64,000 nt of DNA from Candidatus Caldarchaeum sp. (lineage in GTDB: Archaea > Thermoproteota > Nitrososphaeria_A > Caldarchaeales > Caldarchaeaceae). The DNA lies in NCBI GenBank assembly GCA_038844785.1, contig JAWBRA010000005.1, forward strand, positions 1 to 64,000, read 5' to 3'. Below the pieces are notes generated by a model. It did not search any database, was not told the origin of the DNA, and saw nothing but the letters and a program-made list of their open reading frames with translations. This document shows, piece after piece, positions 5,415-52,640 of this stretch; within the stretch, counting starts at the first letter, position 1, and each line of letters opens with the position of its first letter. A program made the translations under genes and the position numbers.

Positions 5415-5460
5415 TTGGTAGCTGGAAAACATATTATTAACGCCTGAACGACCTCGAGCC

Positions 5461-5769: not shown

Positions 5770-6766
5770 CGTTTTTGCTGGCTATGTTTATCGCCGCCTC
5801 CGCTATATCCTCAGCGTACTCAGCTATCCTTCTCAAGCTCCCTAAAACTGTCAACATTGTAGCTTGGCTTTCCGGCTTTTCTCTCCTCTTAGATGGCTGG
5901 CTCTGAAGCTGTTCAACCTTCGCCGCAACCTTTTCAGCCAGCGTTAAAGTCTCGTTTGCTTTTTTCATGCTAAGCTCCAGAAGCGCCGCTAGGGATGATT
6001 TGAAAACAGCTACCACATCTTGGCTAATGCCTAAAATTTTTTCAGACTCATCTAAGTCATCGCTCATAATTAAGGTTCTCTCACAGATGTTTACAGCATG
6101 ATCCGCTGCTCTTTCAATGTTTTTCGCAACCAAAACGTATGCGATACATTCAGCAGGGTCATCGAGCTGAAGCGATTTTAAGATAGAATAGTCTTTGACT
6201 GCTACATTTAGCTGTCTTGTTACGAAGTGGTAAAACCTGTCAACCTCGTCGTCTCTGTTGACAACTTCTTCGGCTAAAGACTTGTTAACCTCAACGATTG
6301 AGTCAACAGCGTCAACCACCATGTTGGTTGTTATGCTGCCCATTCTCTCTATGGAAAGCCTGACGGGTAGTTTATCATGCATCGGCAGGCACTGCGCTAA
6401 AATCTCAGTGGATGATTCCTCAATTATCTCCACGCCGACAAGCCAGCGTCTTATCCTCTCCTTCAAAAAACCTATTGTCTGCGGAGAGTGTTCTGGAAAA
6501 GAAACGCGGATTTTGCTGTATCCTTCAAGATACTTTGAGAAGAAAAGCCTAGCTACCTCTGCCGGAGTGTCGGATTTTCCAGCGTATATCTCGGCTTGCG
6601 ACAGCTTTTCATCGGAGTCGACCGAGATTATCAGCTTGCTTGACAGCGGTATCAATTTCACGCGGTCAAATTTTTTTAGGTTGTTAGCCGTCACCCACTC
6701 CCTCGGCAGGGAAACTATGAACGTGGATTTCCCAGTCTGCTGTATGCGCCTTATGCATGCCTGCAT
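5753..6766 (-). CDS. archaeal phosphate-uptake regulator (AbrB-like N-terminus + PhoU domains)
   Basis: RRIQQTGKSTFIVSLPREW AbrB-type motif; DDEVDRFY, ERAADHAVNI, RRIAEYAEDIAE PhoU repeats; divergent from pst operon. Confidence 0.88.
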   Translation of the reverse strand: MQACIRRIQQTGKSTFIVSLPREWVTANNLKKFDRVKLIPLSSKLIISVDSDEKLSQAEIYAGKSDTPAEVARLFFSKYLEGYSKIRVSFPEHSPQTIGFLKERIRRWLVGVEIIEESSTEILAQCLPMHDKLPVRLSIERMGSITTNMVVDAVDSIVEVNKSLAEEVVNRDDEVDRFYHFVTRQLNVAVKDYSILKSLQLDDPAECIAYVLVAKNIERAADHAVNICERTLIMSDDLDESEKILGISQDVVAVFKSSLAALLELSMKKANETLTLAEKVAAKVEQLQSQPSKRREKPESQATMLTVLGSLRRIAEYAEDIAEAAINIASKNVNGVA

Positions 6767-6780
6767 CGGGTTAAATTTGA

Positions 6781-6835
6781 ATATAGATGTATATAGAGTT
6801 TAGGTGTCAAAATATTTTCGGCGGCTCATCTATAT
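6781..6835. promoter_or_regulatory. candidate operator repeats between phoU-regulator and pstS
   Basis: ATATAGA direct repeat at 6781 and 6791 (10-bp period); CATCTATAT at 6827-6835 is the exact inverse of 6781-6789. Confidence 0.4.
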
Positions 6836-6863
6836 ATCCCCGGAAAAAAGACCGTTTATCGCC

Positions 6864-7940
6864 ATGAAACCGAGTAAAGCCGTATCTTCTACGCTGTTGG
6901 TCAGCACCATCCTTTCGCTGGTTGTCGGCCTAGCGGCTGGGGCTTTCCTAAGCCCTTTGCTAGACACATCGTCGCAGACAAAGACTGTGACAACCATTTT
7001 CACTACCACGGTAGCGGTGGGAGATTCCTTGGCGGAATTGTCGGGTGAAATAGTTGTTGACGGCTCCAGCACCGTTTATCCGATGACTGAAGCGGCTGCA
7101 ACAGCATTCATGCAGAAACACCCAAAGGTCTCCATATCGGTCGGAATCTCAGGGACCGGCGGCGGGTTCAAACGTTTCGTCGTCGGCGAGACCGACATAA
7201 ACGATGCTTCCCGACCCATTCTAAAAGCTGAGCATGAAACGGCTGTAAAAAACGGCGTTGCGTGGATTGAGATTCCCGTTGCTATAGATGCTTTGGTGGT
7301 TGTCGTTAACCGGGAAAACAACTGGGTTGACTGCATAACCATCTCGGAGCTTAAGAAGATATGGGAGCCCAACAGCAACGTCAGGCTTTGGAGCGACATA
7401 AGACCTGACTGGCCGGCCCAACCCATCAAGCTCTACGGCCCAGGGCCTGACTCAGGGACCTTCGACTACTTCACCGAAAGAGTTGTCGGCAAAACTAAGG
7501 CAAGCAGAACGGACTACGTTGCTTCAGAGGATGACAACGTGCTCGTTGCAGGGGTTGAGTTGGAGAAGTATGCCCTTGGTTACTTCGGCTACGCATACTA
7601 CCCTGAAGCAAAGGACAAGATAAGGCCGCTGTCGGTTAAGGATGACAGGGCCGGCGGCCAGTGCGTCGAACCCAACGACGAGACAGCAAGCACCTTCACC
7701 TACCCGTTGTCACGCCCCCTCTTCATCTACGTTAACAGGAAGGCATGGGAGCAAAAACCGCACCTGAGAGAGTTTGTGCTGTTTTACGTGCAGAATGGGG
7801 CAAGATTCGCCAAACAGGTGTCGTACACACCTCTGCCCGACCACTACTACGCAAAAGCCTATGTACTGCTGAGTGCAGGCGTATTCGACGGGCTCTATGA
7901 GCTGACATTCCTTAAAAACAGGAATGCAGGCCCACATTAG
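6864..7940 (+). CDS. pstS: phosphate ABC transporter substrate-binding protein
   Basis: DGSSTVYP, SGTGGGFKRF, SGTFDYF, YPLSRPLFIY; N-terminal TM and Thr-rich linker; start taken at ATG 6864. Confidence 0.93.
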   Translation: MKPSKAVSSTLLVSTILSLVVGLAAGAFLSPLLDTSSQTKTVTTIFTTTVAVGDSLAELSGEIVVDGSSTVYPMTEAAATAFMQKHPKVSISVGISGTGGGFKRFVVGETDINDASRPILKAEHETAVKNGVAWIEIPVAIDALVVVVNRENNWVDCITISELKKIWEPNSNVRLWSDIRPDWPAQPIKLYGPGPDSGTFDYFTERVVGKTKASRTDYVASEDDNVLVAGVELEKYALGYFGYAYYPEAKDKIRPLSVKDDRAGGQCVEPNDETASTFTYPLSRPLFIYVNRKAWEQKPHLREFVLFYVQNGARFAKQVSYTPLPDHYYAKAYVLLSAGVFDGLYELTFLKNRNAGPH

Positions 7941-7948
7941 GAGAAAAG

Positions 7949-8869
7949 ATGTCAACAGTTTTCAGCCCCTCATTACTCCAGAGCGTGAGAAAGAGACAGC
8001 GGAACACCAAAATAGTAAACACCATTTTTTTGCTCGCTTCATCGATAGCTTTTCTCACTATTGTCATAATCGTAGGCTCCCTGCTGCTTGAGTCAAGCAT
8101 CTTTTTTGGACATGTCTCGCCTACTGAGTTCTTTACGGGAACTGAGTGGACAGTCCTGTTCGCTGAGAAAAAGTTCGGCGTTCTGCCTCTCGTGACGGCG
8201 ACAGCCCTAACCTCAGCCATCGCCTTAATCGTCGCTGTCCCCGCGGGACTTGCTATAGCGATTTACTTGAGCGAGTATGCGCCGCCGTCGGTGAGAAGAC
8301 CTGTCAAAAGCATAGTGGAGCTACTGGCGGGGGTGCCTACTGTTGTTTACGGGTACTTCGCCCTATACTTTATTTCGCCCAACCTTTTGAAGCCGTTTAT
8401 CCCCAACTTAGGTATACACAGCGCCCTGGCAGTTGGGTTGATGATAGGTGTCCTCATCATTCCCATAGTCTCCTCCTTGAGCGAGGATGCGTTATACTCC
8501 GTCCCCGAAGACTTTCGTCTCGCGGCCTACGCCCTTGGCTCGAGGAAGATAGACGTGGTTTTCCGAATAGTTCTGCCCGCAGCTTTGTCGGGGATATTCG
8601 CATCTATAATTCTCGCCTTCACACGGGCTATGGGTGAGACAATGATAGCTGCCATCGCCGGAGGGTTCAGAGTGATTTACAGCTTCGACCCACGTGAATC
8701 GATGGAAACCATGACAGCCTTCATAGCCCAAGTTTCCACAGGAGACGCCCCCCACGGAACAGTTGAATACCAGTCCATTTTCGCGGTAGGTCTTCTACTG
8801 TTTGTGATCACTATGGCTTTCAACCTTGTGGCTATAGCTGTTGTTAGGAGGTGGCAGATACGGTATTGA
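7949..8869 (+). CDS. pstC: phosphate ABC transporter permease PstC
   Basis: ELLAGVPTVVYG, RAMGETM; position in operon. Confidence 0.93.
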   Translation: MSTVFSPSLLQSVRKRQRNTKIVNTIFLLASSIAFLTIVIIVGSLLLESSIFFGHVSPTEFFTGTEWTVLFAEKKFGVLPLVTATALTSAIALIVAVPAGLAIAIYLSEYAPPSVRRPVKSIVELLAGVPTVVYGYFALYFISPNLLKPFIPNLGIHSALAVGLMIGVLIIPIVSSLSEDALYSVPEDFRLAAYALGSRKIDVVFRIVLPAALSGIFASIILAFTRAMGETMIAAIAGGFRVIYSFDPRESMETMTAFIAQVSTGDAPHGTVEYQSIFAVGLLLFVITMAFNLVAIAVVRRWQIRY

Positions 8870-9744
8870 ACAAGGCGGCTGTCTTTATAAGGGTTGACAG
8901 GTTTAGGAAGCTTCTCGATAGCTTGGCTCCAGCATTCCTCTCTCTAGGTGTTTTCCTAGGCGTTGCGACTGTCGCCTCACTACTCGCGACAGTCGTTTCA
9001 ACAGGCTGGCACAGGCTCTCATGGAACCTCCTCACAGAATATCCATCTCCAGACCCCAACCAAGCCGGCATGAGGTCTGCTTTTCTAGGAAGCCTGTGGA
9101 CCGTAGGACTTTCAGCTTTAATCTGCGTTCCACTTGGGATAGCTGCCGCACTTTATCTCACGGAGTGGTCGGAGAACAAGCTTCTTAGACGTTTTCTCGA
9201 GTTCAACATAGCTAACCTGGCCGGAGTTCCCTCAGTAGTCTTCGGGCTGGTGGGGTTGAGCGTCCTAACTTACGGGCTTGGATGGGGTAGGTCTATCATA
9301 GCTGGTGCTTTCACTTTAGCGGTCATGACCCTTCCGCTTGTGACGGTTTCCGCCGCCGAGGCTGTCAAAACAGTTCCGGAGGCTTTGAAGCATGGAGCCT
9401 ATGCCCTTGGGGCGACGAAGCTTCAGGTAACCCGGTATATAATCCTGCCACGCGCTCTTCCGATGATGATGACAGGCGCCATCCTAGCCATCTCCCGTGC
9501 GATAGGCGAGGCCGCACCCATCCTCGTGATAAGCGGGTTGTTGTTCATCAGGCAAGACCCCTCCAGCATCTTCGACAAGTTTACCGTCATGCCTCTTCAA
9601 ATCTATAACTGGGTGAGCAGGCCGCAGGCGGCCTTCAGAGAGCTCTCCTCAGCCGCCATCCTAGTTCTTCTGATCCTCCTCCTAGCTTTCAACGCAACGG
9701 CTATCGTTTTACGTTACAGGTATCAAAAGAGGGTGACGTTATAA
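8851..9744 (+). CDS. pstA: phosphate ABC transporter permease PstA
   Basis: NLAGVPSVVFGL, SRAIGEAAP. Confidence 0.93.
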   Translation: MADTVLNKAAVFIRVDRFRKLLDSLAPAFLSLGVFLGVATVASLLATVVSTGWHRLSWNLLTEYPSPDPNQAGMRSAFLGSLWTVGLSALICVPLGIAAALYLTEWSENKLLRRFLEFNIANLAGVPSVVFGLVGLSVLTYGLGWGRSIIAGAFTLAVMTLPLVTVSAAEAVKTVPEALKHGAYALGATKLQVTRYIILPRALPMMMTGAILAISRAIGEAAPILVISGLLFIRQDPSSIFDKFTVMPLQIYNWVSRPQAAFRELSSAAILVLLILLLAFNATAIVLRYRYQKRVTL

Positions 9745-10572
9745 ATGGGTTGGTTGAAGGAGTTGGTGGCTGAAAAAGAAGCAGCCATGATTCAAGATGA
9801 CCGCGTGGTCGTTGAAACAGTAAACCTCTCCGTCAGATACGGTAAACGCTACGCCATCGGAGACATTAACTTGAAGTTTGAAAGAAACAAGATCACGGCT
9901 ATAATAGGGCCCTCGGGATGCGGTAAGTCAACTCTCCTTAGATGCATAAACCGTATGAACGACCTCATCCCAGACGCCCGCGTGGAAGGAAAAGTGCTTT
10001 ACAGAGGCGTTGATATATACTCTCCAGGAATAGACCCCGTTGCTGTTAGGTCTGTCATAGGCATGGTTTTCCAAAGACCCAACCCCTTCCCCATATCTAT
10101 CTTCGACAACGTTGCCTTCGGTCTGAGGGTGAACGGTGTCAAGCTTTCGAAGCAAGAGCTCAAAGAGAAAGTGAGAGATGCTCTGGAGAAAGCAGCTTTA
10201 TGGGATGAGGTGAGCGACAGGCTTGACGCACCGGCTTACTCGCTTTCCGGAGGACAGCAGCAAAGGCTTTGCATAGCCAGGGCGCTGGCGGTAGACCCCG
10301 AGGTCATACTGCTCGACGAGCCGACAGTCTCCCTAGACCCTATCTCCACGGCAAAGATAGAGCAGCTTCTCCGCAACATCTCAAGCAGCTACACAATAAT
10401 CATCGTAACCCACAACATGCTGCAGGCTGCAAGAGTCTCAGACTACACGGCTGTCCTCATGCCCGACGAAAACATGGTCGGCAGACTGATAGAGTTCGGG
10501 CCGACGAAGGAGATATTCACGAACCCGCGTGACAGGAGGACAGAAGACTACATATCTGGAAGGGTGGGTTGA
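9745..10572 (+). CDS. pstB: phosphate ABC transporter ATPase
   Basis: [43 protein letters not shown]. Confidence 0.95.
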
Positions 10573-10579
10573 GAAAGGT

Positions 10580-11212
10580 ATGCCGCGTCTGATGGACATA
10601 GGGCTTGAAAGGCTTGTCCACATGCTTAACGACATGGCTTCTCTGAGCATGAAAGCCGTCGAGCTGGCTGTCCAGAGCTTCATAAAAGAAGTCAACATGC
10701 AGGAAGAAGTTTTCCAGCTTTCGGAAAAGCTTCGATGGCTTCAGGACGAGGTTTCTGACCTAGCGGTTGAGCTCATAGCCCGGTACCAGCCCGTTGCAAG
10801 CGACCTACGTTTTCTACGCTCCGCCATGGAGGTTGCCTACGGGTTTTCAAGGTTCGGCCGGTACGCGTACGACATATCGCAGATTATACCAACGTTCGGG
10901 GAGTTAAGTGATTGTGAGAAGAACCATGTTGCCGAAGTTAGCCAGGTTGTGAAGGAGATGCTGGAGATAAGCATCAAGAGCTTCATCGAGAAAAAGGTTG
11001 ATTTGGTGGAAAAGCTTGAACAGCTCGACTCCCTGATTGACAAGGCTTACAGAGACCATGTCGAGCGGAGCATCTCCCAGCCAGGGTCGAAAAAATGCGA
11101 CATGGCCACCATGCTTATTCTCCGATACCTAGAAAGAATAGCCGACCACGCCACCTACATAGGAGACTCTGTTGAATACATAGTGGAAGGTGTTAGAAGG
11201 CCGAGGAAGTAG
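10580..11212 (+). CDS. phoU: phosphate signalling protein PhoU
   Basis: IARYQPVASDLR, LERIADHA; follows pstB; start at ATG 10580. Confidence 0.9.
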   Translation: MPRLMDIGLERLVHMLNDMASLSMKAVELAVQSFIKEVNMQEEVFQLSEKLRWLQDEVSDLAVELIARYQPVASDLRFLRSAMEVAYGFSRFGRYAYDISQIIPTFGELSDCEKNHVAEVSQVVKEMLEISIKSFIEKKVDLVEKLEQLDSLIDKAYRDHVERSISQPGSKKCDMATMLILRYLERIADHATYIGDSVEYIVEGVRRPRK

Positions 11213-11217
11213 CTATT

Positions 11218-11601
11218 ATGCCTCCGAAGAAGGTGGTCATCGAAAAACAGTGTGCCGGCCTTCTCCTCGCCATGGCCAGGGAGGTTCATCCCAACGAGGT
11301 TATAGCGCTTCTCCACGGCAGTGTTGAAAAGGATGTCATAAGGGTAAGGGAGGTGTATTTAGCTCCTCAGTCGATATACGGCGAAGGCTTCTCCTCTTTC
11401 AACCCATACGCTCTGCCGATAGACCTATCCTATGTCGGGATAGCGCATTCTCATCCTTCTGGTGCAGGAGAACCATCTCTCGAAGACCTTCACAACTTCA
11501 CTGGAAGAATAATGTTAATACTGACAGCTCCTTACAAAGACTCGAGAGACATACATGTCTTTGACGCTGAGGGCAGAAGAATCGCCTTTGAGATAGTCTA
11601 A
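11218..11601 (+). CDS. JAMM/MPN+ metalloisopeptidase
   Basis: N-terminal PNE and HSHPSGAGEPSLED (H-x-H-x7-S-x2-D). Confidence 0.85.
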   Translation: MPPKKVVIEKQCAGLLLAMAREVHPNEVIALLHGSVEKDVIRVREVYLAPQSIYGEGFSSFNPYALPIDLSYVGIAHSHPSGAGEPSLEDLHNFTGRIMLILTAPYKDSRDIHVFDAEGRRIAFEIV

Positions 11602-12278
11602 CGTGTTAACGCTGAGCACATTTCTCTCAAAAGCTTTTCCGGATTGCTGCTTTTCACGTAGGCGCTTGAAAGCAGCACTCCCTCCACGCCGAGCATAACA
11701 GCCTTTTTTACATCCTCCGCCGTTGAAACACCTGCTCCGCACAGCACGATGACGTCTGGGCTGACAGACCTAACCTTCTCAACAGCCTCGGAGACAACCT
11801 CAGGCTTCACCTGCGACACGGACATTCCAGTGCCTATTAGCTCCGGAGGCTCCACAGCCACCGCATCCGGTTTCATCGACGCTGCTGCAACAGCGGCTGC
11901 AACGTCATCCGCACAAACCACGGACAGCATGTCATTCTGTCTAAGTCTCGCCACGGACAACGCAAGGTCGGAGAGCTTCATCCTTCTCTCGGAGTGGTTG
12001 AGCAGAGACCCGGCCACGCCAATAGTCTTCAAGGCCTCCGCAACTATCGAGCCTGTGAATGGCCCTGGTTGATAGGGGTCGCAGTGCTGGGCTAGGACAG
12101 GGATTGAAACATTCTTCACGACTTTCTCTAGTTCCGTGTAGGTCGGGCATACGGCCAGCTGAACACCTGTCTCAGACGAGACTTTGTCGGCGATCTTCGC
12201 CAGTTCAAGCCCTTGACTCCCCAAGGCCTCCTTGAAGGATTTGAAATTCAGGATGATGATGGGTGTCTTGAATCTCAT
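11598..12278 (-). CDS. tpiA: triosephosphate isomerase (archaeal type)
   Basis: LNFK, NHSERR, VEPPELIG, CGAGV. Confidence 0.95.
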   Translation of the reverse strand: MRFKTPIIILNFKSFKEALGSQGLELAKIADKVSSETGVQLAVCPTYTELEKVVKNVSIPVLAQHCDPYQPGPFTGSIVAEALKTIGVAGSLLNHSERRMKLSDLALSVARLRQNDMLSVVCADDVAAAVAAASMKPDAVAVEPPELIGTGMSVSQVKPEVVSEAVEKVRSVSPDVIVLCGAGVSTAEDVKKAVMLGVEGVLLSSAYVKSSNPEKLLREMCSALTR

Positions 12279-12351: not shown

Positions 12352-13728
12352 ATGGTAAAGGACGAGGTTATTCCATATCTTGGACACCACACCCCGAAAG
12401 ATATTGCGGAAATGCTTTCGGCGATAGGTGTCAGCGACCCCTTACAACTCTATTCAGACATTCCTTCAAAATACATTTTACAGAAGCCTCCGGACATCGG
12501 GCCTCCTCTCTCAGAGCAGGAGGTCGTTGAGAGGATTAGAAAGATTCTGGAGGAAAACCGTCGTGGCCTGCGGCTTTTCGTCGGGGGAGGCGTTTGGCCC
12601 CATTACATTCCTGCAGCTGTCAAAGAAATTGTCTCGAGGACGGAGTTTTTGACGAGCTACACGCCATACCAGCCAGAGGCATCACAGGGCATGTTAACCG
12701 CTCTCTTCGAATTTCAAAGCCTGGCTGCAGAGCTTTACGGAGTGGACGTAGTCAACTCCTCGATGTACGATTGGGCGACGGCTTTGGGAGAAGCTTTCCG
12801 AATGGCTTACAAGTATACCGGGAAAAGAAAGGTTATAGCAGCTGGTTTCTGCAGCCCAGACCGTTTGAAAGTCGCACAGACATACATTAAGCCCTTAGGG
12901 ATGGAGGTTGTGAAAGCACCGATGGACCGTAAGGCGATGATTGACGAAGAGTTCCTCAAATCAAACATAGACGGCGACACCGCTGCAGTCTACGTGGAAA
13001 ACCCATGCTTTCTTGGCGCGGTTGTACGCAACGTGAAAGCAGCTGCAGAGATATCCCACGACTCAGGAGCGCTTTACATCGTGGGAGCTGAGCCCACATC
13101 ACTAGGCCTATTGACGCCACCCGGCTCATACGGAGCAGACATCGTGGTAGGGGAGGGCCAGCCTCTGGGTCTGCCCATGAGCTTCGGAGGCCCCTTGCTA
13201 GGTATTTTGGGATGCGTTTTCGACAGAAAGCTTCTCCACACGATGCCCGGCCGGCTTGTTGGGATGACCGAAACTTTGAAGGACAGGAAGCGGGCTTTCA
13301 CCATGGTGCTGAGGGCTAGAGAGCAGGACATAAAAAGGGAGAAAGCTACGTCAAACATATGCACCAACCAAGCTTTGTGTGCCGTCGCAGCAGCGGCATA
13401 CCTTTCGCTTCTCGGGAAAAACGGACTTAAACGTCTCGCCAGACACATATTCGACAAGACAGCCTACTTTATAGACCGGCTGTCCACCGTTGAAAACCTT
13501 AAAACACCTTTGTTAGAAGCGCCTCATTACATGGAGTTCAGCTACAGCGTCTCAAACATCGACCACGGGCTTATACTGAAGAAGCTTTTAGAGAAAAACA
13601 TCGTCGGCGGGTTAAGACTGTTCGACATGTTTCCTAGCATAGGAGACGGCGTACTAACGTGTGTTACCGAGATCCACAGCAAAAAAGATATCGACGAATA
13701 CGTAAGCTATGTAAGGGAGGCGGTTTGA
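12352..13728 (+). CDS. gcvPA: glycine dehydrogenase (decarboxylating) subunit 1
   Basis: TSYTPYQPEASQG, GADIVVGEGQ, REQDIKREKATSNICTNQAL. Confidence 0.95.
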   Translation: MVKDEVIPYLGHHTPKDIAEMLSAIGVSDPLQLYSDIPSKYILQKPPDIGPPLSEQEVVERIRKILEENRRGLRLFVGGGVWPHYIPAAVKEIVSRTEFLTSYTPYQPEASQGMLTALFEFQSLAAELYGVDVVNSSMYDWATALGEAFRMAYKYTGKRKVIAAGFCSPDRLKVAQTYIKPLGMEVVKAPMDRKAMIDEEFLKSNIDGDTAAVYVENPCFLGAVVRNVKAAAEISHDSGALYIVGAEPTSLGLLTPPGSYGADIVVGEGQPLGLPMSFGGPLLGILGCVFDRKLLHTMPGRLVGMTETLKDRKRAFTMVLRAREQDIKREKATSNICTNQALCAVAAAAYLSLLGKNGLKRLARHIFDKTAYFIDRLSTVENLKTPLLEAPHYMEFSYSVSNIDHGLILKKLLEKNIVGGLRLFDMFPSIGDGVLTCVTEIHSKKDIDEYVSYVREAV

Positions 13729-15245
13729 TGTTTAGACAGGCTTCATGGGATGAAAAGCTAGTTTACGAGATTTCCAAGCATGGCGTTCAAGGGTTCAGCC
13801 CTCCACACACAGAGGACGAAATCCAGCAGGCGGGCAACAAGATGATTGAAAACCTGCCGAAAGAGCTGTTGAGAGAAGACCTCCCGCTGCCTGAGCTCTC
13901 GGAGCCGCAGGTTGTGAGACACTTCACCAGGCTCAGCCAGATGAACTTCAGCATCTCAACATCATTCTACCCTTTGGGTAGCTGCACGATGAAGTACAAC
14001 CCAGCCGTAAACAACCAATTAGCATGGTTAGAGGAGGTTGTGAACGCGCATCCGCTGCAGCCTCCGGAAACCGTTCAGGGATGTTTAGAGCTGCTTTACA
14101 ACCTTGAAGCCGCTCTCAAGGAGATTACGGGTATGGATGCTTTCTGCCTAGCTCCTGCCGCAGGCGCCCACGGAGAACTTGTCGGCTGCCTCATAATGAG
14201 AGCCTACCACATGGATAGGGAGGGGAGGCCGAGGAAGAAGATAATAGTGCCTGATTCGGCGCATGGGACGAACCCTGCAAGCGCAGGCATGGCCGGTTTC
14301 GAAGTTGAGGTTGTAAAAACAAGGAGCGATGGATGTCTAGATCTCGACACCTTCGAAAAGATGGTTGACGGCGATGTCGCGGGGATAATGCTTACAAACC
14401 CCAACACATTAGGCCTTTTTGAAAAAGACATCGAAACCATTGTGAAGATAATGCATTCAAACGACTCGCTTCTCTACTATGACGGGGCAAACCTTAACGC
14501 GATAATGGGAGTGGTCAGGCCTGGAGACATGGGGTTTGACATCATACATCTAAACCTCCATAAAACGTTCTCAACCCCCCACGGCGGCGGGGGACCGGGA
14601 GCCGGGCCAGTGGGCGTTGTGGCCAAACTCTCCAAATATTTACCGCCTCCACGGATAGTCAGGAATAGAAACGGCGCGTTCGAGCTTGTTGCCGACGTGG
14701 AGAACGGGGTTGGTCCTGTCAAAATGTTTTACGGAAATTTCGGCGTACTTGTCAGAGCATACGCCTACATACTGTCGATGGGGGGTGAGGGTTTGAGGAG
14801 GGCGGCAGTTACCTCGGTAATCGCCTCAAACTACATGCTGTCAAAGATATCCAAGCTGCGTGGGGTCAGCATACCATACGACCCTGCAAGACCCCGAAAA
14901 CACGAGTTTGTCATAAGCTTGTCAAGACTCAGGAAGGAAACAGGCCTAGGAGCTTTAGAAGTTGCCAAACGTCTTCTAGACTACGGCTTCCACGCGCCAA
15001 CAATATACTTCCCCCTCATCGTTGAAGAGGCTTTCATGGTTGAGCCCACTGAGACCGAGGCTAAGGAAACGCTCGACAGCTACGTCGAGGCTTTTGCGAA
15101 AGTCATCGAAGAATGCTACAGCAGCCCGGAAGTTGTCAGGACAGCACCCCACAACACGTCTGTTGGAAGAGTGAATGAAGCGAAAGCTTCACATCCGTTA
15201 TCCCTAACGCCGACTTGGAAAACGCTGCGGAGGAGGCGAGAGTGA
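13728..15245 (+). CDS. gcvPB: glycine dehydrogenase (decarboxylating) subunit 2
   Basis: PLGSCTMKYNP, PDSAHGTNPAS, HLNLHKTFSTPHGGGGPG; TGATG coupling to gcvPA. Confidence 0.96.
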   Translation: MFRQASWDEKLVYEISKHGVQGFSPPHTEDEIQQAGNKMIENLPKELLREDLPLPELSEPQVVRHFTRLSQMNFSISTSFYPLGSCTMKYNPAVNNQLAWLEEVVNAHPLQPPETVQGCLELLYNLEAALKEITGMDAFCLAPAAGAHGELVGCLIMRAYHMDREGRPRKKIIVPDSAHGTNPASAGMAGFEVEVVKTRSDGCLDLDTFEKMVDGDVAGIMLTNPNTLGLFEKDIETIVKIMHSNDSLLYYDGANLNAIMGVVRPGDMGFDIIHLNLHKTFSTPHGGGGPGAGPVGVVAKLSKYLPPPRIVRNRNGAFELVADVENGVGPVKMFYGNFGVLVRAYAYILSMGGEGLRRAAVTSVIASNYMLSKISKLRGVSIPYDPARPRKHEFVISLSRLRKETGLGALEVAKRLLDYGFHAPTIYFPLIVEEAFMVEPTETEAKETLDSYVEAFAKVIEECYSSPEVVRTAPHNTSVGRVNEAKASHPLSLTPTWKTLRRRRE

Positions 15246-16333
15246 AAGAGATACCGCTTCTAAAACACCACCTGTCGTCTCCTAAAGTTGAAGCGGGAGA
15301 GTTCGCCGGATGGAAGACCATCATATCTTTCACGACGGTTAGGGAAGAGCATAGAGCTGTTAGGGAAAAAGCCGGTATCTTCGACATAAGTCACATGACA
15401 CGTGTCAAGTTGTCTGGACCGGGTGCGACATCATTACTTCAGAAGGTCGTGACAGCAGACGTTGATAAGCTCAAACCCGGGAGAATGAAGTACGCTTTAA
15501 TCCTGAACGAACAGGCTGGAATAATCGACGACGTCACAGTCTTCAAGGTTTCGGAGAACAGCTATGTGATGGTCTCAAACGCAGTCACAAGGACTAGGGT
15601 CTTGGAATGGCTTAGTGAAAACGCTGGAGAAAACGTACATGTCGAGGACTTCACCGACTCCTCTGCGTTTTTCGCAGTCCAGGGCCCTAAAGCTGTTGAA
15701 TTTGTCTCCAAGTTTTTCGGTAAAGATTTCACCCCGTTTAAATGGTTCAGCGGCGAGTTTGCAACGGTCGACGGCTGCCAGATTCTCGTGACGCGAAGCG
15801 GCTACACAGGCGGCGACGGGTTTGAGCTAATCATACCGTGCGGCGGCCCATCCTTCTACGGAAGGGTCTGGGACAGGTTTGTTGAGGAAGGGGTTCAGCC
15901 GTGCGGCCTTGCATGCAGAGATATCTGCAGGATCGAAGCAGGATATCTCCTCTCTGGACAGGACTTCGACGAGTCTAAGTCGCCTCTAGAGACGAAGCTT
16001 ATGTGGGCAGTCAACTTAGAAAAGCCCGGGTTCATAGGCAAGCAAGCCCTCGAGAATAAGCTGATAGCCAAGCTGGAAAAAGTGGTTACGCTTCTTGAGA
16101 TGGTTGAGCCCGGTGTTCCAAGACATGGATACCCGTTGGTGGATGAAAGCGGGAGAAAAGTTGGCGAAGTAACCAGCGGCGGGGTCATACCTTCGACGGG
16201 TAAGGCGGCGGCGATAGGATACGTCGTGCCAGAGCTCTCCCAAGAAGGGTGTGAGGTTTTCGTAGACATAAGAGGGAAGATTAGAAAGGCTAGGGTGAGA
16301 ACAAGGCCATTCATAACGTTTACAAAACCTTAG
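15242..16333 (+). CDS. gcvT: glycine cleavage aminomethyltransferase T
   Basis: GIFDISHM, GIIDD, AVQGP, RSGYTGGDGFE, RIEAG; GTG start overlaps the gcvPB stop. Confidence 0.94.
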   Translation: MKEIPLLKHHLSSPKVEAGEFAGWKTIISFTTVREEHRAVREKAGIFDISHMTRVKLSGPGATSLLQKVVTADVDKLKPGRMKYALILNEQAGIIDDVTVFKVSENSYVMVSNAVTRTRVLEWLSENAGENVHVEDFTDSSAFFAVQGPKAVEFVSKFFGKDFTPFKWFSGEFATVDGCQILVTRSGYTGGDGFELIIPCGGPSFYGRVWDRFVEEGVQPCGLACRDICRIEAGYLLSGQDFDESKSPLETKLMWAVNLEKPGFIGKQALENKLIAKLEKVVTLLEMVEPGVPRHGYPLVDESGRKVGEVTSGGVIPSTGKAAAIGYVVPELSQEGCEVFVDIRGKIRKARVRTRPFITFTKP

Positions 16334-18619: not shown

Positions 18620-19852
18620 ATGCTGATAATCTGCCTCGTGAAGGGTGTTCCCGCCAGAACCACTCAAGTGGTAACAGTCTCGGGCGTGCTTAAGCGGGAG
18701 GAGATGGACCTTGTTCTAAACCCGCATGACGTAAAAGCAATTGAAGCCGCGTACTATGTCAAGAGGATGGTGGGTGGAAAAATCGTCGGCATAAGCATGG
18801 GTCCCGAGCCTAAGATAATGCCCATTATGAACGACTTGGCTGAGCCTAAGGAGGAGAGTTTTTACGTTCCAAGGATTTCGTTCGAAGGTTTTGACGAAAG
18901 AATCATTCTCAGCGACAGGCGGATGGCTGGGGCTGATACATGGGCCACGTCATACACGCTGGCATGCGGGATAAGCCGTTACATCCAAAACCATGTTGAA
19001 GCGGTTGACAAGCTTATAGAGGCTGTGAAAAACTCTAGCCCGGAAGAGGCTGCATCATTGGCGGAGAAGCTTTACATGGAAAACTTGTTGCCCAACTACA
19101 TCTACTCAAAGCTACCGACTGTCAGGGCTACCTTGGTTGAAAGGTTCTTAAAAGGCGAGGTTGGCAAGGAGGCGGTTATCTCCGAGCTTCAAAAACACAG
19201 ACAGAACATCACCAACTTCATAATTCTTACAGGCATGAAGACCAGCGACGGGGAAACAGGCAACACAGGTCCTCAGACAGCTGAAGCGTTGAGCGGCATG
19301 ATGGGTAGGCTGATACCCAGCATAGCTTTCGTCAGAGAGTTTGAGATATCACCCGACGCCACCACCATCGTAGCCGTCAGAAAAATCGGCAAGACTCTCC
19401 AAAAACTGCGTGTTTCGCCTCCATGCCTTCTTACGATAGACAGCCATTACGAGCCGAAAGTTCCTTACGCCTCTCTTCAAAGGAAAGTGAGGGCAAACAA
19501 CTACATGGGCAAAATGAGAAAAACCCTTGTCTGGAACGCTGACCATATAGGAGCGGACCCAAACAAAATCGGCTTCATGGGCTCGCCAACCATCGTCGGA
19601 CCCGGATACGAAATAGGGAAACCGCCTTCTCAAAAGTTTGTAGGCGAAACGCTTGTCTTTAAACAGAACGTCGGCAAAATAGAATGGAATGGGAAAGCTT
19701 ACGGGCCTTTCAACAAAGGTGACATGGCATCAAACCTTCCCGAAGATCTTTTGAGAAAGCTTAGAGAGGACGGTGTTATTGACTTCTTCAGCCTTGAAGA
19801 CTTGGTTGAAGAAATTTTCGGAGGGATCAAGGTTGTCCACAGAGCTGTATAA
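18620..19852 (+). CDS. etfB: electron transfer flavoprotein beta subunit (FixA-like), with insertion
   Basis: CLVKGVP, LNPHD, SMGP, LSDRRMAGADTWATS, GMKTSDGETGNTGP, GSPT. Confidence 0.88.
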   Translation: MLIICLVKGVPARTTQVVTVSGVLKREEMDLVLNPHDVKAIEAAYYVKRMVGGKIVGISMGPEPKIMPIMNDLAEPKEESFYVPRISFEGFDERIILSDRRMAGADTWATSYTLACGISRYIQNHVEAVDKLIEAVKNSSPEEAASLAEKLYMENLLPNYIYSKLPTVRATLVERFLKGEVGKEAVISELQKHRQNITNFIILTGMKTSDGETGNTGPQTAEALSGMMGRLIPSIAFVREFEISPDATTIVAVRKIGKTLQKLRVSPPCLLTIDSHYEPKVPYASLQRKVRANNYMGKMRKTLVWNADHIGADPNKIGFMGSPTIVGPGYEIGKPPSQKFVGETLVFKQNVGKIEWNGKAYGPFNKGDMASNLPEDLLRKLREDGVIDFFSLEDLVEEIFGGIKVVHRAV

Positions 19853-20921
19853 AGACGTATGGGCTTACTGTGTAAAAGAAGGAAACCATCTTACAAGGCC
19901 AAGCCTCGAGATACTTGCCGCAGCCCGTAAGGTCGCTGACAAGATAGGACAACAAGTTGCCGCCGTCATCATAGGCCATAACTTAGACGGTGTCCTGGAT
20001 GAGGCGATAGCGTTCGGAGCTGATAAAGTATTGTACGCCGATGAACCCTGGCTTAAAAACTATCTCTGCCTTCCGTACACGCGTGTGTTGTGCGAGATGG
20101 CTGAGAAGATGAAGCCTTACGCGATTCTTTTCGTAGCGGATGAGCTGGGTAGAGATCTTTCACCGCGCGTGGCTTACAGGCTTAACACCGGCCTTGCGAC
20201 AGACAACATAAACCTCGAAGTCGAGGACTATTATTTCGGCCCCACCAACACGACTTACAAAAACGTCCTAGCCCAGATAAGGCCTGACTTCGCTACGAGA
20301 GTAGCTAAAATATTCACGCCGAGACATAGGCCCCAGATAGCCAGCATAAGGCCTGGAAACTTCGAACCACTGCCCGAAGACCGTAGGAGGGTTGGTGAAA
20401 AAATCAGGTTTTACCCGACGCCTGTTCCAGAAGATTTCTCCGTCGAGGTCATTGAAGAGAGAGAGCTTCCTAAGCCCAGTGTCAACCTTGAGGAGGCCAA
20501 GGTTGTGGTCAGCATTGGGTTGGGAATACTTAAGGACGGTAGCGGAAACCCACGCAACCCACGGGAGGGTTTCATGCTGGCTAAGAAGCTTGTGGACTTG
20601 GTCAGGGAGAAGTTTGGTGTCCCGAGCGAGCTTGGAGCCACACGGGCGCTCATATACTCAGAGCTTAAAGAGCTTGAAGGCCTTGTTACGTCTGAAAGAC
20701 AGGTTGGACAGACAGGTAAGACCGTGTCACCCGACGTCTACATAGCTGCAGGCATAAGCGGCTCAGTCCAGCACAGAGTCGGAATGATCAAGTCGAAGAA
20801 AATAGTGGCTATAAACAACGACCCTAAAGCACCAATCTTCGAGATAGCCCACTATGGGGTGAAAGCAGACCTTTACGAGGCCCTGCCTAAAATCCTTGAA
20901 ATCATCGAGAGGAGGTACTAA
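19833..20921 (+). CDS. etfA: electron transfer flavoprotein alpha subunit (FixB-like)
   Basis: GRDLSPRVA..L.TGL..D, QVGQTGKTVSP, GISGSVQHRVGM, INNDPKAPIF. Confidence 0.92.
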   Translation: MSTELYKDVWAYCVKEGNHLTRPSLEILAAARKVADKIGQQVAAVIIGHNLDGVLDEAIAFGADKVLYADEPWLKNYLCLPYTRVLCEMAEKMKPYAILFVADELGRDLSPRVAYRLNTGLATDNINLEVEDYYFGPTNTTYKNVLAQIRPDFATRVAKIFTPRHRPQIASIRPGNFEPLPEDRRRVGEKIRFYPTPVPEDFSVEVIEERELPKPSVNLEEAKVVVSIGLGILKDGSGNPRNPREGFMLAKKLVDLVREKFGVPSELGATRALIYSELKELEGLVTSERQVGQTGKTVSPDVYIAAGISGSVQHRVGMIKSKKIVAINNDPKAPIFEIAHYGVKADLYEALPKILEIIERRY

Positions 20922-22618
20922 TGGCTGAGAAGTTTGATGCCGTGGTGGTGGGCGCCGGACCGGCTGGTTCCGCAGCCGCTTTGACGCTGGCCCGGAACGG
21001 ATACGACGTCTTGATGCTTGAAAAGACACAGCTGCCTGGACAGAGGAACGTGTCGGGAGGCGTTTTGTTCGGCGGATTCACTGATGGGCTGGGGCTTATA
21101 GACCTACTCCCCGAGTTTGAAGAGGAGGCGCCTCTCGAGAGGAAGATCTCGGGCCACGAGCTTTATCTGCTAAGCCAGCACGTAAGGAAAAACGGGGACT
21201 GGGAGTACAGGTTCGTCAAGTTCGATAAGAGGTCTTTATTGACAAAGGTTGGTTTAACCATGCTCAACGCATCAAGCGGACATGACTACACAGTCCTGAG
21301 GGCGCGTTTTGACAGGTGGATGGCTTCGAAAGCGGTTGAGGAAGGCGCTATGCTCGCCACGTCAAAAACGGTTGAAAACCTCATATTCAAAGACGGCAGG
21401 GTGGTGGGTGTTGTTACCCAGGATGAGGAGATATATGCTGACATGGTGATAGACTGCGGGGGGGTGACCTCACTTCTCCCCGAGAAGGCTGGAATAAGAC
21501 CTAGGCTTACTCCAGCTCAAGTCTACCATGGTGTAAAACAGGTTTTGAAGCTGTCGCCTCAGAAAATTGAAGAATTTTTCAAGCTTGACGACGGTTTCAA
21601 AACACTCTATCTGCTGGGGCCCTTTATGCACGGCATCGTCGGAGGCGGTTTCATATATCCCAACAAAGACACGCTATCTGTAGGTATAGTGGTTGGGCTT
21701 TCTTCTGCGCTACCCGTGTTCACAAGACGTTTCAACGAGTTGGGCAAACCCTTTGAGATTCTCGAGGAGATGATGTCTCATCCGTTCGTCAGCCAAATAT
21801 TACAGGAGGCAAAACCGGTCGAGTACTCGGCTCACAACATTCCAAAAGGCTACAAGGTCCTTCCCGACAAACCTTATGCTCCCGGCTTCCTACTGGCCGG
21901 CGACGCGTTAGGTGTTTTCTACAAGATTGGAGCCCTTATCGACGGAATCAGACCGGCTATAGCCTCCGGAATTTTAGCCGCGCGAACTTTCATCCACGCA
22001 AAGAACCAAGGCGACTTCAGCGCTTCGACCCTCTCGATTTACAGAAAGCTTCTAGAACCGTTGTACAGGCTTGTCTCAAAGTCGAGGACAAACAGCGCCC
22101 TGATTGAGCGTAAGATTTTCTATTCAACAAGCTGCGAGGCCATGTTTAAGCTTGGCTTGGGCAGAAAAGCGGTCGCAAAGATAGCAAACGTTGGAAACAA
22201 CGGCAAGGACATGATGCAGACTATACAGCAGATGACCGGGCTTCTCGACTATCAGGAAGACAAGCTTAGGTCGCACATAGAGGTAAACCAAGCTATGGCA
22301 TCTTCTGACAGGGAGAAAGCATGGATACCCATGTGCCCCGTCAACTGCTATACCCTGGTGACGGGTAAAGGTGTTTTCGCATCTTTCAAAGACCTTTACC
22401 GATACAACCTAGAGAGCCTGAAGAAGAATGGTTTGGATGAAAGGACGGCGGCTAGAAAGGCCTTGGAGACAACGTTGGAAGACATTAGGTTGGGGCAGCT
22501 GAAGTTCGACCACGTGGCTTGTGTGGCATGCGGGACGTGCGGCGTGATCGGACCGCCGTCCATGGTTAGGTTTGGCCATGAATGGAATGGGTACGGTGTT
22601 AAGTTTAAATATGGTTAA
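20921..22618 (+). CDS. FixC-type ETF:quinone oxidoreductase fused to FixX-like ferredoxin
   Basis: VVGAGPAG, GQRNVSGG, LRARFDRW, EYSAHNIP, LAGDA; C-terminal CPVNCY...CVACGTC...GYGVKFKYG. Confidence 0.88.
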   Translation: MAEKFDAVVVGAGPAGSAAALTLARNGYDVLMLEKTQLPGQRNVSGGVLFGGFTDGLGLIDLLPEFEEEAPLERKISGHELYLLSQHVRKNGDWEYRFVKFDKRSLLTKVGLTMLNASSGHDYTVLRARFDRWMASKAVEEGAMLATSKTVENLIFKDGRVVGVVTQDEEIYADMVIDCGGVTSLLPEKAGIRPRLTPAQVYHGVKQVLKLSPQKIEEFFKLDDGFKTLYLLGPFMHGIVGGGFIYPNKDTLSVGIVVGLSSALPVFTRRFNELGKPFEILEEMMSHPFVSQILQEAKPVEYSAHNIPKGYKVLPDKPYAPGFLLAGDALGVFYKIGALIDGIRPAIASGILAARTFIHAKNQGDFSASTLSIYRKLLEPLYRLVSKSRTNSALIERKIFYSTSCEAMFKLGLGRKAVAKIANVGNNGKDMMQTIQQMTGLLDYQEDKLRSHIEVNQAMASSDREKAWIPMCPVNCYTLVTGKGVFASFKDLYRYNLESLKKNGLDERTAARKALETTLEDIRLGQLKFDHVACVACGTCGVIGPPSMVRFGHEWNGYGVKFKYG

Positions 22619-22681
22619 TATGGTACCAATCTTATTTTATGATAAGAATAGCTTAAATTAAGGCTAAAACAGGCATACCCC

Positions 22682-23533
22682 ATGACCTACGCAAACCCCA
22701 GCGTTCTAGCGGAAGTTGAATGGCTGAAACAAAACCTGGCAGACCCCAGCATAAAAGTCGTGGAGGTTGACTACGACCCGAAGCTGGCTTACGAACAAGG
22801 CCATATACCCGGAGCCTTGCTGATCGACTGGAGGAAAGACATGAACAAGCAGGACGTCCGTGACATAATAGACGCCCGCGAGTTTGAAAACCTCATGTCA
22901 CGTTTAGGCATCTCAAACGACACCCACGTAATACTCTACGGCGACTACAACAACTGGTTTGCGACTTTCGCCTTCTGGGTCTTCGAAATGTACAACCATA
23001 AGAAAGTCCAGCTCCTCAACGGCGGAAGGAAAAAATGGATCGATTCCGGCGGAGAGCTCACAAAAGAAGTGCCAAAGCCAAAGCCAGCGGTATACCGTGT
23101 CGAGAAAATCAACCTTGAACAGCGGGTTTTCCTTGATGAGCTTTTGAAGGAGAAAATAGCGGATCCGAACTTGGTTTTAGTCGACGTTAGGTCACCTGCG
23201 GAGTTTACCGGCGAGATCACGGCTCCTCCGGAATATCCTAACGAGCATGCGCAAAGGGGCGGCCATATCCCAGGTGCGGTAAACATTCCTTGGGGGCAGG
23301 CGGTACGTGAAGACGGCACTTTCAAACCTGCTGAAGAGCTTAGGCAGCTCTACAGCTCAAAAGGAGTTACTCCGGATAAAAACGTAGTCACTTACTGCAG
23401 AATCGGCGAGAGAGCTAGCGTAACATGGTTTGTGTTGAAACATTTGGTTGGATACCAGCGTGTCCGAGTTTACGACGGCAGCTGGACAGAGTGGGGTAAC
23501 CTCGTTAGGTTTCCGATAGAGAGGCAGCGTTGA
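22682..23533 (+). CDS. tandem-domain rhodanese (thiosulfate sulfurtransferase, CysA-type)
   Basis: GHIPGA twice, active-site loop YCRIGER, YDGSWTEWGN. Confidence 0.93.
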   Translation: MTYANPSVLAEVEWLKQNLADPSIKVVEVDYDPKLAYEQGHIPGALLIDWRKDMNKQDVRDIIDAREFENLMSRLGISNDTHVILYGDYNNWFATFAFWVFEMYNHKKVQLLNGGRKKWIDSGGELTKEVPKPKPAVYRVEKINLEQRVFLDELLKEKIADPNLVLVDVRSPAEFTGEITAPPEYPNEHAQRGGHIPGAVNIPWGQAVREDGTFKPAEELRQLYSSKGVTPDKNVVTYCRIGERASVTWFVLKHLVGYQRVRVYDGSWTEWGNLVRFPIERQR

Positions 23534-24189
23534 AGTCTGCGGATGGATGTTTCTTACCGGAGGACAGGGGCTACGTCGTTGAACACGACCTATGGTTCAA
23601 GAACGTTGCGGAGAACAGGTATTTGGTGGGAGCGTGCCAACCATTTCTTTTCATGGCAGGCAGGCCTAAAAAAGTAAACGTAAGAGGTAAAGGAACCTTA
23701 GTCAGACGGAACACAGCCATTGCCCTTGTTGTTTCGTCAAAGATGGAGGGCGCTTTGCTGTCGCCTGTTGACTTAGAAATACTGCATGTTAACGATTTTG
23801 TGTTGCAAAACCCCGAGGTTTTAGCTGACGACCCTTATGAAAAAGGATGGCTAGCTGAAATAATCTGCCACTCAACCCCTGCATTAACAGGTGCGGAAAC
23901 AGCCTCCGTGTTATATGAGCAGTTGAACAGCCGGCGTGGGGTTGTCTGCTTCGACATAGTCCCACATTACCAGATGACTGTGTTTGGGGAAAGCTGTGAG
24001 AGTATTTTGACTAAGATAGGTAATTTCATGAGTCAACACGTGGGTGTAGGCGAGACGCTTTACGTTGTGACGCAGGACCCGGCTACAGAGGTGGACATGA
24101 TTAACTGGGCTGAGAAAACAGGTCAGCATCTCCTAGGCATGAAAAGGTTTGGAAAAACCATTCACGTAATGTACAAGCGCATGGTTTAA
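23530..24189 (+). CDS. LbpA/GcvH-like lipoyl-carrier domain fused to TusA/SirA-like domain
   Basis: aa 1-140: GCFLPED, HDLW, VVSSK71, SPV..I..VN, NPEVLADDPYEKGWL, terminal C140; aa 145-219: GESC156, GETLYVVTQDPATEVDMINWAEKTGQ (TusA pattern); start overlaps the rhodanese stop. Confidence 0.78.
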   Translation: MKSADGCFLPEDRGYVVEHDLWFKNVAENRYLVGACQPFLFMAGRPKKVNVRGKGTLVRRNTAIALVVSSKMEGALLSPVDLEILHVNDFVLQNPEVLADDPYEKGWLAEIICHSTPALTGAETASVLYEQLNSRRGVVCFDIVPHYQMTVFGESCESILTKIGNFMSQHVGVGETLYVVTQDPATEVDMINWAEKTGQHLLGMKRFGKTIHVMYKRMV

Positions 24190-52634: not shown

Positions 52635-52640
52635 AAGGCC

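Follow-up and report, generated by a model that had tools for sequence, protein, structure and literature searches.

A probable two-protein sulfurtransferase module next to an EtfABCX-type gene cluster in a Candidatus Caldarchaeum genome

Gene organization of the locus

The stretch of DNA analyzed here, referred to as the window, comprises 64,000 nucleotides (positions 1 to 64,000, forward strand, of contig JAWBRA010000005.1, designated C5) of assembly GCA_038844785.1 from Candidatus Caldarchaeum sp., an assembly of 1.74 Mb in 57 contigs that is 95.5% complete; the proteins nearest to those of the window carry the same source-record name. Our subject is a set of five co-oriented genes at positions 18,620 to 24,189, three of which encode components of an Etf cluster and two of which encode a tandem-domain rhodanese and a small protein, here called the fusion or the carrier, in which an LbpA-type GcvH fold is joined to a TusA fold. 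The stretch holds two separate units, the Etf cluster and the rhodanese-fusion pair, and not one system. The second unit is probably a small operon with its own promoter that encodes a two-protein sulfurtransferase module. The features are arranged as follows.

18620..19852, + strand: long EtfB-type subunit, 410 aa (open reading frame; Pfam ETF over residues 23-121 only; PDB match)
19773..20921, + strand: EtfA-type subunit (ETF 8.6e-32; ETF_alpha 2.1e-18; NF042970 253.9 bits from residue 23)
20921..22618, + strand: FixC (ETF-quinone oxidoreductase type) with a FixX-like cysteine-rich tail, 565 aa (NF007542 FixC 2.9e-65; 7koe_C 1.8e-47)
22619..22681, + strand: 63-nt intergenic gap, ~68% A+T by count from the sequence (window ~50%)
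22682..23533, + strand: tandem-domain rhodanese, 283 aa, with a YCRIGER loop containing Cys239 (Rhodanese 4.5e-40 in two stretches; NF008557 1.3e-38, below its cut-off)
23530..24189, + strand: two-domain carrier, LbpA-type GcvH fold plus TusA fold, 219 aa (GCV_H, TusA, AlphaFold2, Foldseek)

The gene content described in an earlier note on this DNA (etfB-etfA-fixCX, a 63-bp gap, a rhodanese with a CRIGER loop and an overlapping fusion gene) is all present. The rhodanese stop and the fusion start overlap by 4 nt, as TTGA, and the start of EtfA is uncertain, its listed open reading frame overlapping etfB by 80 nt.

Conservation and transcription of the rhodanese-fusion pair

The distribution of these genes was followed in three samples. 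The first consists of 76 genomes of the class, all of one order and falling into four families (f1 to f4; genera are prefixed g). The second contains 29 loci from the other 31 fusion-bearing genomes of that order, taken with ~9.5 kb on each side, in which the window's 15 proteins were located by tblastn; G001 and G026, whose fusion contigs are shorter than 3 kb, were left out of this neighborhood count. The third is a set of 401 genomes of the phylum, which yielded five further fusion-bearing genomes in four other families, referred to below as the distant genomes.

Full-length fusion orthologs are present in 32 of the 76 genomes (17 of 18 in f1, including this genome, 6 of 7 in g6, all 8 in g7 and the single genome of g8), and among these 76 genomes there is none in g5, f3 or f4. 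A rhodanese ortholog adjoins the fusion in 24 of the 29 loci (f1 15/15, g7 8/8, g8 1/1, g6 0/5), as well as in four of the five distant genomes (two convergent, one co-directional and one fragmentary), and lies 4.3 kb off in the fifth. The module is found in two families of the order, and patchily in other Thermoproteota, its two genes staying together in many hot-spring archaea. The idea, already in the earlier note, that rhodanese and fusion work as a functional pair is borne out in three respects: first, their adjacency is kept across families and orientations; second, start and stop codons overlap; and third, a prediction of their complex passes. In one locus (L099, G401:C14, at 2159-2994) the rhodanese beside the fusion aligns as two pieces in different frames, where a frameshift is possible, and in another (L101, G411) the rhodanese is fragmentary.

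The rhodanese contains two rhodanese domains with the catalytic cysteine in the C-terminal one. Its mean column identity is 75% over an alignment of 21 orthologs (L041 left out) and 55-63% between families, and the fusion is only 21-31% identical between f1 and f2. The YCRIGER loop (C239-R244) is invariant in all 21 rhodanese orthologs; a CRxGxR loop is said to mark thiosulfate-type rhodaneses.

Several features of the 63-nt gap bear on transcription. A TATA-like sequence, TTAAAT, is located at 22653-22658, 23 nt (about 23-28 nt) before the rhodanese ATG, and an equivalent box occurs at similar spacing in g1 and g2, with TTTATAA in its place in g3 and g4; g3 keeps this TTTATAA box before the rhodanese though it has no etf upstream. 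The spacing of the box fits a separate, nearly leaderless rhodanese transcript, and the suggestion that the two halves are separately transcribed is probably correct, given that the TATA-like box is kept even without an upstream etf. A ATATTATT-like, partly palindromic element lies at ~22630-22645, ~40-50 nt before the rhodanese ATG. It is conserved in g1 to g4 of f1 (at equivalent places in L040-L054), also where no etf lies upstream, and may be a candidate regulator site.

Two RNA libraries contain matching contigs. In the metatranscriptomic library X12 all four (100% identical) lie within 22696-24073 and one of them crosses the rhodanese/fusion junction; RNA libraries can contain DNA, so that this evidence is weak, and the lack of etf or fixCX contigs in X12 allows no conclusion. 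Library X13, which comes from a relative (90-99% identity), covers parts of both units, and among the matches listed none spans the 63-nt gap.

Beyond the genome samples, a profile search of 1.84 billion representatives returned 34 proteins with E values of at most 1e-30, which with few exceptions are two-domain proteins of 215-249 aa, the named members belonging to Bathyarchaeia and other Thermoproteota, and the ESM Atlas contains eight clusters with the fusion architecture among the 30 nearest matches, mostly archaeal. The architecture is already annotated automatically, and JGI labels some members. No published description of a GcvH-/LbpA-TusA fusion was found in titles, abstracts and passages, with the reservation that supplements (Table S1 of PMC11094781) may list these genomes, and a search for literature joining Caldarchaeum, heterodisulfide reductase and sulfur oxidation likewise found none.

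Fold and predicted complex of the carrier

The fusion scores 52.4 bits against GCV_H, over the cut-off, and 20.6 bits against TusA, under the cut-off of 28.6 and over profile positions 24-65 only, although some orthologs pass it (29.0 bits in L057). An AlphaFold2 model computed from 25 orthologs (predicted local distance difference test, pLDDT, 95.1; predicted template modeling score, pTM, 0.86) has a GcvH fold at residues ~1-140 and a TusA fold at ~145-219. Foldseek matches the N-terminal domain to the GcvH chain 1onl_A (E 5.9e-11, template modeling (TM) score by target 0.90, root-mean-square deviation (rmsd) 1.5) and the C-terminal domain to E. coli TusA 3lvj_C (TM by target 0.85, rmsd 1.4) and to 3lvk_B (0.89); no solved chain covering both domains turned up in that search. 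C156 is placed by the model at the N-terminus of helix 156-170, as is the cysteine of the TusA fold.

The cysteine motif of TusA is C-P-x-P. The motif around the carrier's cysteine is E-S/T-C-E/S, and CPGP is kept by few members (e.g. P0020 and P0035). In its TusA fold, its invariant helix-1 cysteine and the dedicated rhodanese alongside, the carrier resembles TusA (PF01206) and the rhodanese-to-TusA relays of sulfur oxidizers as these appear in passages of PMC11094781. It differs from TusA in falling below the Pfam cut-off and in that its TusA-like part exists only as the C-terminal half of a fusion.

Complex prediction suggests that rhodanese and carrier probably interact physically. The predicted complex scores 0.74 (runs of 0.74, 0.00 and 0.75) and the best of three controls 0.01; a mark of 0.74 is reached by 58 of 80 solved complexes and by 2 of 110 mismatched pairs, a yardstick that is only rough in that own alignments were used here. 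Between runs, agreement amounts to at least 0% of contacts; the partner has a pLDDT of at least 84. The predicted interface involves residues 32-40, 88-89, 116-127 and 178-186 of the rhodanese and residues 42-43, 50-77 (including position 71), 136, 147, 149, 166 and 169-170 of the fusion, and on the fusion side it is formed mainly by the hairpin that bears the lipoyl-lysine in true H-proteins.

LbpA-type cysteines and the lipoyl-lysine position

In the passages of Cao et al. 2018 (PMC6067878) that deal with them, LbpAs carry two conserved cysteines that are absent from GcvH, and the lipoyl lysine is strictly conserved in 95 LbpAs. The cysteine pair of Thioalkalivibrio LbpA2 is Cys7 and Cys145, which are within disulfide distance in models and are dispensable for recognition by the ligase, according to portions of a recent preprint (bioRxiv 10.64898/2026.10.01.755906).

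We compared the corresponding positions of the fusion in three partly overlapping sets: 30 orthologs of the order, the five distant genomes and 31 cluster representatives. There are three main features. First, C156 of the TusA-like domain is present in every member (30/30, 5/5 and 31/31, respectively). Second, C7 is found in 30/30, 5/5 and 30/31, and so is C140; the LbpA of this genome's sHdr locus (described below) also has cysteine in both columns, and three canonical GcvH proteins have a tyrosine and a gap. Third, the lipoyl-lysine position, K71 in this genome, is variable, with K10/R19/N1 in the order, K1/R2/N1/V1 in the distant genomes and K10/R18/V1/T1/S1 among the representatives. On a 66-row tree, whose alignment kept the K71 column (1 of 223 columns), lysine and non-lysine states exchange at least 13 times, 10 of these changes being forced by well-supported (starred) branches, and switches occur even inside the window's own genus. 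A metal site formed by C7, C140, C156 and H212 was considered and set aside, H212 (H in 30/30 in the order, 24/31 representatives and 3/5 distant genomes) being invariant only within the order.

Because the lysine state changes so freely, lipoylation cannot be the mechanism of the fusion family, and the lipoyl step that the earlier note built into its proposal is not sustained, with lysine in only 10 of the 30 orthologs and at least 13 changes of state on the tree. The pattern at position 71 fits a positive charge at a docking surface, unlike that of an obligatory lipoate-bearing residue. As its alignment reads, the family is LbpA-like, but as a family it is not a lipoate carrier. It shares with LbpA, as portrayed in parts of PMC6067878, the GcvH fold, the N- and C-terminal cysteines (C7 and C140 in the carrier) and the co-occurrence with sulfurtransferases, and it differs from the LbpAs reported there in having lysine in only 10 of 30 orthologs against strict conservation. 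Further differences from LbpA are that the carrier is fused to a TusA-like domain and lies outside an shdr cluster, and that most of its hosts give no sHdrB1 match.

There is next to no likelihood that the GcvH-like domain is simply the H-protein of the glycine cleavage system, a role that its surroundings might bring to mind: gcvPA, gcvPB and gcvT are located 7 kb upstream on the same strand (12352-16333), the Pfam GCV_H matches of this genome are limited to the fusion, a short lipoyl domain and the LbpA of the sHdr locus, and tblastn with the GcvH of relatives finds no canonical gcvH in the assembly. However, in each of G009, G004 and G011 a canonical GcvH of 140-143 aa (VESVK) exists alongside the fusion, most fusion orthologs no longer have the lysine, the gcvH equivalog TIGR00527 gives 39.6 bits where its cut-off is 115.85, and for an assembly of this completeness and contig number (95.5%, 57 contigs) an assembly gap is the simpler explanation.

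The canonical gcvH of close relatives lies on another contig, and the gcvH missing from this genome is probably lost in an assembly gap. The window also contains, at 51645-53881, genes for 2-oxoacid dehydrogenase E1-alpha and E1-beta. An 81-aa stand-alone lipoyl domain (ETEKA) comes next, encoded on the opposite strand, and the stretch as listed showed no catalytic E2 part.

An sHdr-like island elsewhere in the genome

The earlier note had remarked that no HdrABC-like or DsrE gene is in the window. This stands, for the whole of C5, as regards DsrE and CCG (HdrB-type) proteins; HdrA and HdrC were not searched separately. The genome search that it recommended finds lipoate ligase-type genes on C6 and C15 and genes resembling those of the heterodisulfide reductase-like sulfur-oxidation (sHdr) system on C6, the latter in a single island.

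G000 contig C6, ~47.4-64.6 kb (L009:1386-18571): sHdr-like sulfur-oxidation island, ~17 kb

The island contains, in order, DsrE, TusA, an LplA-type ligase, a 142-aa LbpA (ESAK), DsrE, and then HdrC, HdrB and HdrA. Downstream of hdrA are genes for a 148-aa Fe-S protein and a 281-aa membrane protein, which correspond to the two halves of QmoC, followed by an ArsR-type regulator, and beside the Hdr genes are an FCSD-type (sulfide dehydrogenase flavoprotein-like) flavoprotein, a sulfur-transport protein, a molybdopterin oxidoreductase with an NrfD-type partner, and TauE. The genome thus possesses an sHdr-like system that has carriers of its own and probably also a separate connection to quinone. 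The C6 locus holds no second CCG protein, and sHdrH could not be identified in it; among 20 open reading frames scanned around the C6 Hdr genes there is no etf, nor did the 20 scanned on C6 give a radical-SAM match, no genome-wide search aimed at LipS1/LipS2 having been made. The ligase-type gene on C15 lies beside LipA and dihydrolipoyl dehydrogenase.

Two arrangements of sHdr genes have been published, type I being shdrC1B1AHC2B2 and type II, as given by Tanabe et al. 2024 (PMC11094781), being shdrC1B1AHB3-etfAB(-emo) in one cluster. In the C6 island a split QmoC-like pair appears to replace sHdrH/C2/B2, and the island seems to fit neither published type. Type II clusters are a precedent for sulfur carriers, LbpA, Etf and a quinone oxidoreductase in one cluster, but they differ from the situation here in that C5 has no CCG/HdrB-type match and the Hdr-like genes of this genome are on C6, without etf.

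Distribution separates the pair from sHdr. Within the order sHdrB1 is found in 4 of the 76 genomes and among the distant genomes in 1 of 5, and with that query in only 4 of the 37 fusion-bearing genomes, the other 33 giving no match; this agrees with the earlier view of the pair as independent of sHdr. In the nearest relative, G009, the sequences flanking the island match at 96-97% and are ~1 kb from each other, the intervening DNA containing nothing but a TauE-like stretch, and G006 shares the 20-kb stretch at 99% identity. HdrB1 is 82-84% identical across families, versus 21-31% for the fusion, and this identity together with the absence of the island from G009 points to its lateral transfer; the sHdr-type genes of this lineage would accordingly reside on a laterally moving island.

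It is very doubtful, then, that the fusion is an extra LbpA/TusA component serving the genome's sHdr-like sulfur-oxidizing complex, despite some resemblance. Its N-domain has the LbpA cysteine pair and is 35% identical (E 2e-15) to the sHdr-locus LbpA, compared with 27-28% to the GcvH of relatives, and C6 does carry DsrE, TusA, a ligase, LbpA, HdrC, HdrB and HdrA. Set against this are the small number of fusion-bearing genomes with sHdrB1, the absence of the island from G009 with an HdrB1 identity pattern that fits lateral transfer, and the fact that the island brings its own LbpA and TusA. The possibility, raised in the earlier note, that a full sHdr locus elsewhere accounts for the fusion is therefore right only in part: an sHdr-like locus exists on C6, but with its own LbpA and TusA it leaves the fusion unexplained.

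Two further loci of this genome contain related genes. A TusA match of 33.1 bits, over the cut-off, at G000:C4:42139-42336 (- strand) includes one in-frame TAG, for which a broken gene or a sequencing error is possible, and a second DsrE-TusA gene pair is located at G000:C16:11202-11886, away from the Hdr-like island.

The EtfB-EtfA-FixCX cluster and its linkage to the pair

The best solved match of EtfB is 7koe_A, in two stretches (3-125 and 201-327), and relative to solved EtfB the window protein has a ~75-residue insert and a C-terminal extension, neither of which matches any NCBIfam model. All five of its PDB matches are EtfB subunits of Etf complexes that we take to be bifurcating. EtfA, EtfB and FixC are encoded together with a weakly FixX-like tail (NF011993 8e-5, 22.8 bits against a cut-off of 166; 7koe_D E 0.025), and the best solved matches of all four parts are chains of 7KOE, the EtfABCX/FixABCX complex of Thermotoga maritima, from which the cluster differs by the EtfB insert and extension and by the fusion of FixC to FixX. 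Judged by sequence, etfB-etfA-fixCX is a self-contained EtfABCX/FixABCX-type flavoprotein:quinone oxidoreductase of known kind. Within the order the long EtfB (~400-410 aa) is confined to f1 and to genera g6 to g8 of f2; in the other genomes of the order the EtfB match covers the N-terminal ~120 residues only, in open frames of ~267-287 aa.

The etf genes adjoin the pair in 13 of the 29 loci, in three genera of f1 (g1 10/10, g2 2/2, and g4 1/1 with a 1.1-kb insert). In g1 they are part of a syntenic run of 14 genes (gcvPB-gcvT-DUF7388-OB-fold protein-etfB-etfA-fixCX-rhodanese-fusion-endA-PhoU-like-MobA-like-orf308-glmS), and because this whole run is syntenic the etf adjacency is no tighter than that of the housekeeping genes. 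In the remaining 16 loci etf and the pair are unlinked (g3 0/2, f2 0/14). In g3 the pair keeps endA and a branched-chain amino-acid transporter occupies the place of etf, and in f2 the long EtfB, where it is on the same contig as the pair, lies 67 kb (G024), 166 kb (G021), 242 kb (G029) or 377 kb (G036) away. No etf is found within ~8 kb of the fusion in any of the five distant genomes and none of the five has a long EtfB, four giving matches of 28-44 bits and the complete 2.8-Mb G397 (99% complete) giving none. Inside the order the hosts of the three genes are near-identical (f1 plus g6 to g8 of f2), with a full-length long EtfB in 33, the rhodanese ortholog in 35 and the fusion in 32 of the 76 genomes. 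However, since these hosts form roughly one clade, the shared distribution amounts to about one event and is not independent support.

The earlier note had joined the two units into one system in which sulfur passes from rhodanese to TusA to a lipoyl group, with electrons exchanged with EtfAB-FixCX and the quinone pool. Such coupling now seems quite improbable. In its favor, the genes are co-oriented and adjacent in 13 of the related loci, long EtfB, rhodanese and fusion occur in nearly the same genomes within the order, this genome has K71, type II sHdr clusters as given in parts of PMC11094781 include etfAB with a quinone oxidoreductase, and in one distant genome (G341) the pair is inside a nuo operon. 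Several observations are difficult to reconcile with it. First, no linkage of the two units exists in 16 of 29 related loci or in any of the five distant genomes, which also have no long EtfB; this is the outcome that the earlier note itself had named as refuting its proposal. Second, the shared distribution within the order reflects about one clade and one event, and the g1 adjacency belongs to a 14-gene block that also includes gcvT, endA and glmS. Third, the lipoyl-lysine position is not conserved in the fusion family. Fourth, a promoter-like box lies between the units. Finally, to our knowledge the solved T. maritima EtfABCX needs no sulfur-carrier partner. A tempting link between sulfur carriers and EtfABCX in these archaea is thereby removed as unsupported.

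Neighbors of the pair and possible acceptors

TusA has roles in tRNA thiolation and in synthesis of the molybdenum cofactor, and these roles are one reason to ask whether biosynthetic pathways (tRNA thiolation, molybdenum cofactor, Fe-S clusters or thiamine), as opposed to redox or detoxification reactions, receive sulfur from the pair. tRNA-related neighbors are indeed frequent (endA in f1, TrmO with TiaS in g6, and AspRS-type and ProRS-type synthetases), and the pair occurs in genomes without sHdr. We nonetheless consider this rather unlikely: no neighbor recurs across families, the endA adjacency falls within the same syntenic block as that of etf, the genome has other, stand-alone TusA genes, and we know of no role for an LbpA-type cysteine pair in these biosynthetic pathways.

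Some loci have distinctive neighbors. G017 has a UbiE-type methyltransferase between fixCX and the rhodanese, G401 a GGR-type reductase near the pair and G377 a prenyltransferase adjoining it, and in L103 (G341:C20:145200-162000, at 4959-11898) a convergent fusion and rhodanese lie inside the nuo operon, between nuoI-like and nuoJ-like genes. An association of the pair with quinone or isoprenoid metabolism was considered on the strength of these cases (G017, G401, G377 and G341) and rejected, each being confined to one genome and there being no recurrent partner.

A proposed cysteine persulfide relay

We propose that the pair is a stand-alone cysteine persulfide relay, in which sulfur would pass from C239 of the rhodanese to C156 and on to C7/C140 of the carrier, and we put the probability of this reading at roughly 60%. 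It is built on the folds of the domains, the conservation of residues, the linkage of the genes and a complex prediction that passes, from which we infer the transfer steps and their direction. Cys239 of the rhodanese would be loaded with sulfane sulfur donated by thiosulfate or by another persulfide donor. The carrier is predicted to use the hairpin of its GcvH-like domain, with K or R at the lipoyl-lysine position, for docking on the rhodanese, and sulfur would then be handed to the invariant Cys156 of the TusA-like domain. The Cys7/Cys140 pair could either relay the sulfur onward or resolve the persulfide to sulfide and a disulfide. In this scheme the pair would be a protein dithiol that takes in the carrier the role of lipoamide in LbpA, and lipoate would be unnecessary for the function of the fusion family. 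There is a parallel in classical enzymology, where the action of rhodanese on dihydrolipoate has the dithiol accept the persulfide and release sulfide; the proposed likeness is that a dithiol accepts the rhodanese persulfide, and the difference is that the dithiol here would be a protein cysteine pair, with or without a lipoyl-lysine.

Several observations weigh against the relay. C239 of the rhodanese and C156 of the fusion are both outside the listed interface residues, and one of the three complex runs scored 0.00. In g6 there is no rhodanese within ~9.5 kb of the fusion in any of the five loci, its ortholog being elsewhere in the genome. No acceptor gene recurs beside the pair across the examined neighborhoods. 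Finally, K71 is present in this genome together with lipoate ligase-type genes on C15 and C6, and lipoylation here is possible.

We also advance, as a tentative extension, the possibility that the cysteine pair that marks LbpA is a working dithiol that takes or resolves a persulfide from rhodanese by way of the TusA domain, in a family that is free of lipoate and in which the K/R hairpin has been repurposed from a cofactor arm to a rhodanese docking surface. LbpA proteins are essential for sHdr-type sulfur oxidation. The fusion family keeps the cysteines of both LbpA and TusA, swaps the lysine freely, has a single highly conserved rhodanese as its partner and occurs mostly in genomes without sHdr, and it therefore represents a natural separation-of-function variant. 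The role of the LbpA cysteines becomes testable with two small soluble proteins. If the extension is true, it would offer a first way into the unexplained conservation of the LbpA cysteines, and the pair would be a lipoate-free relative of the sHdr carrier system.

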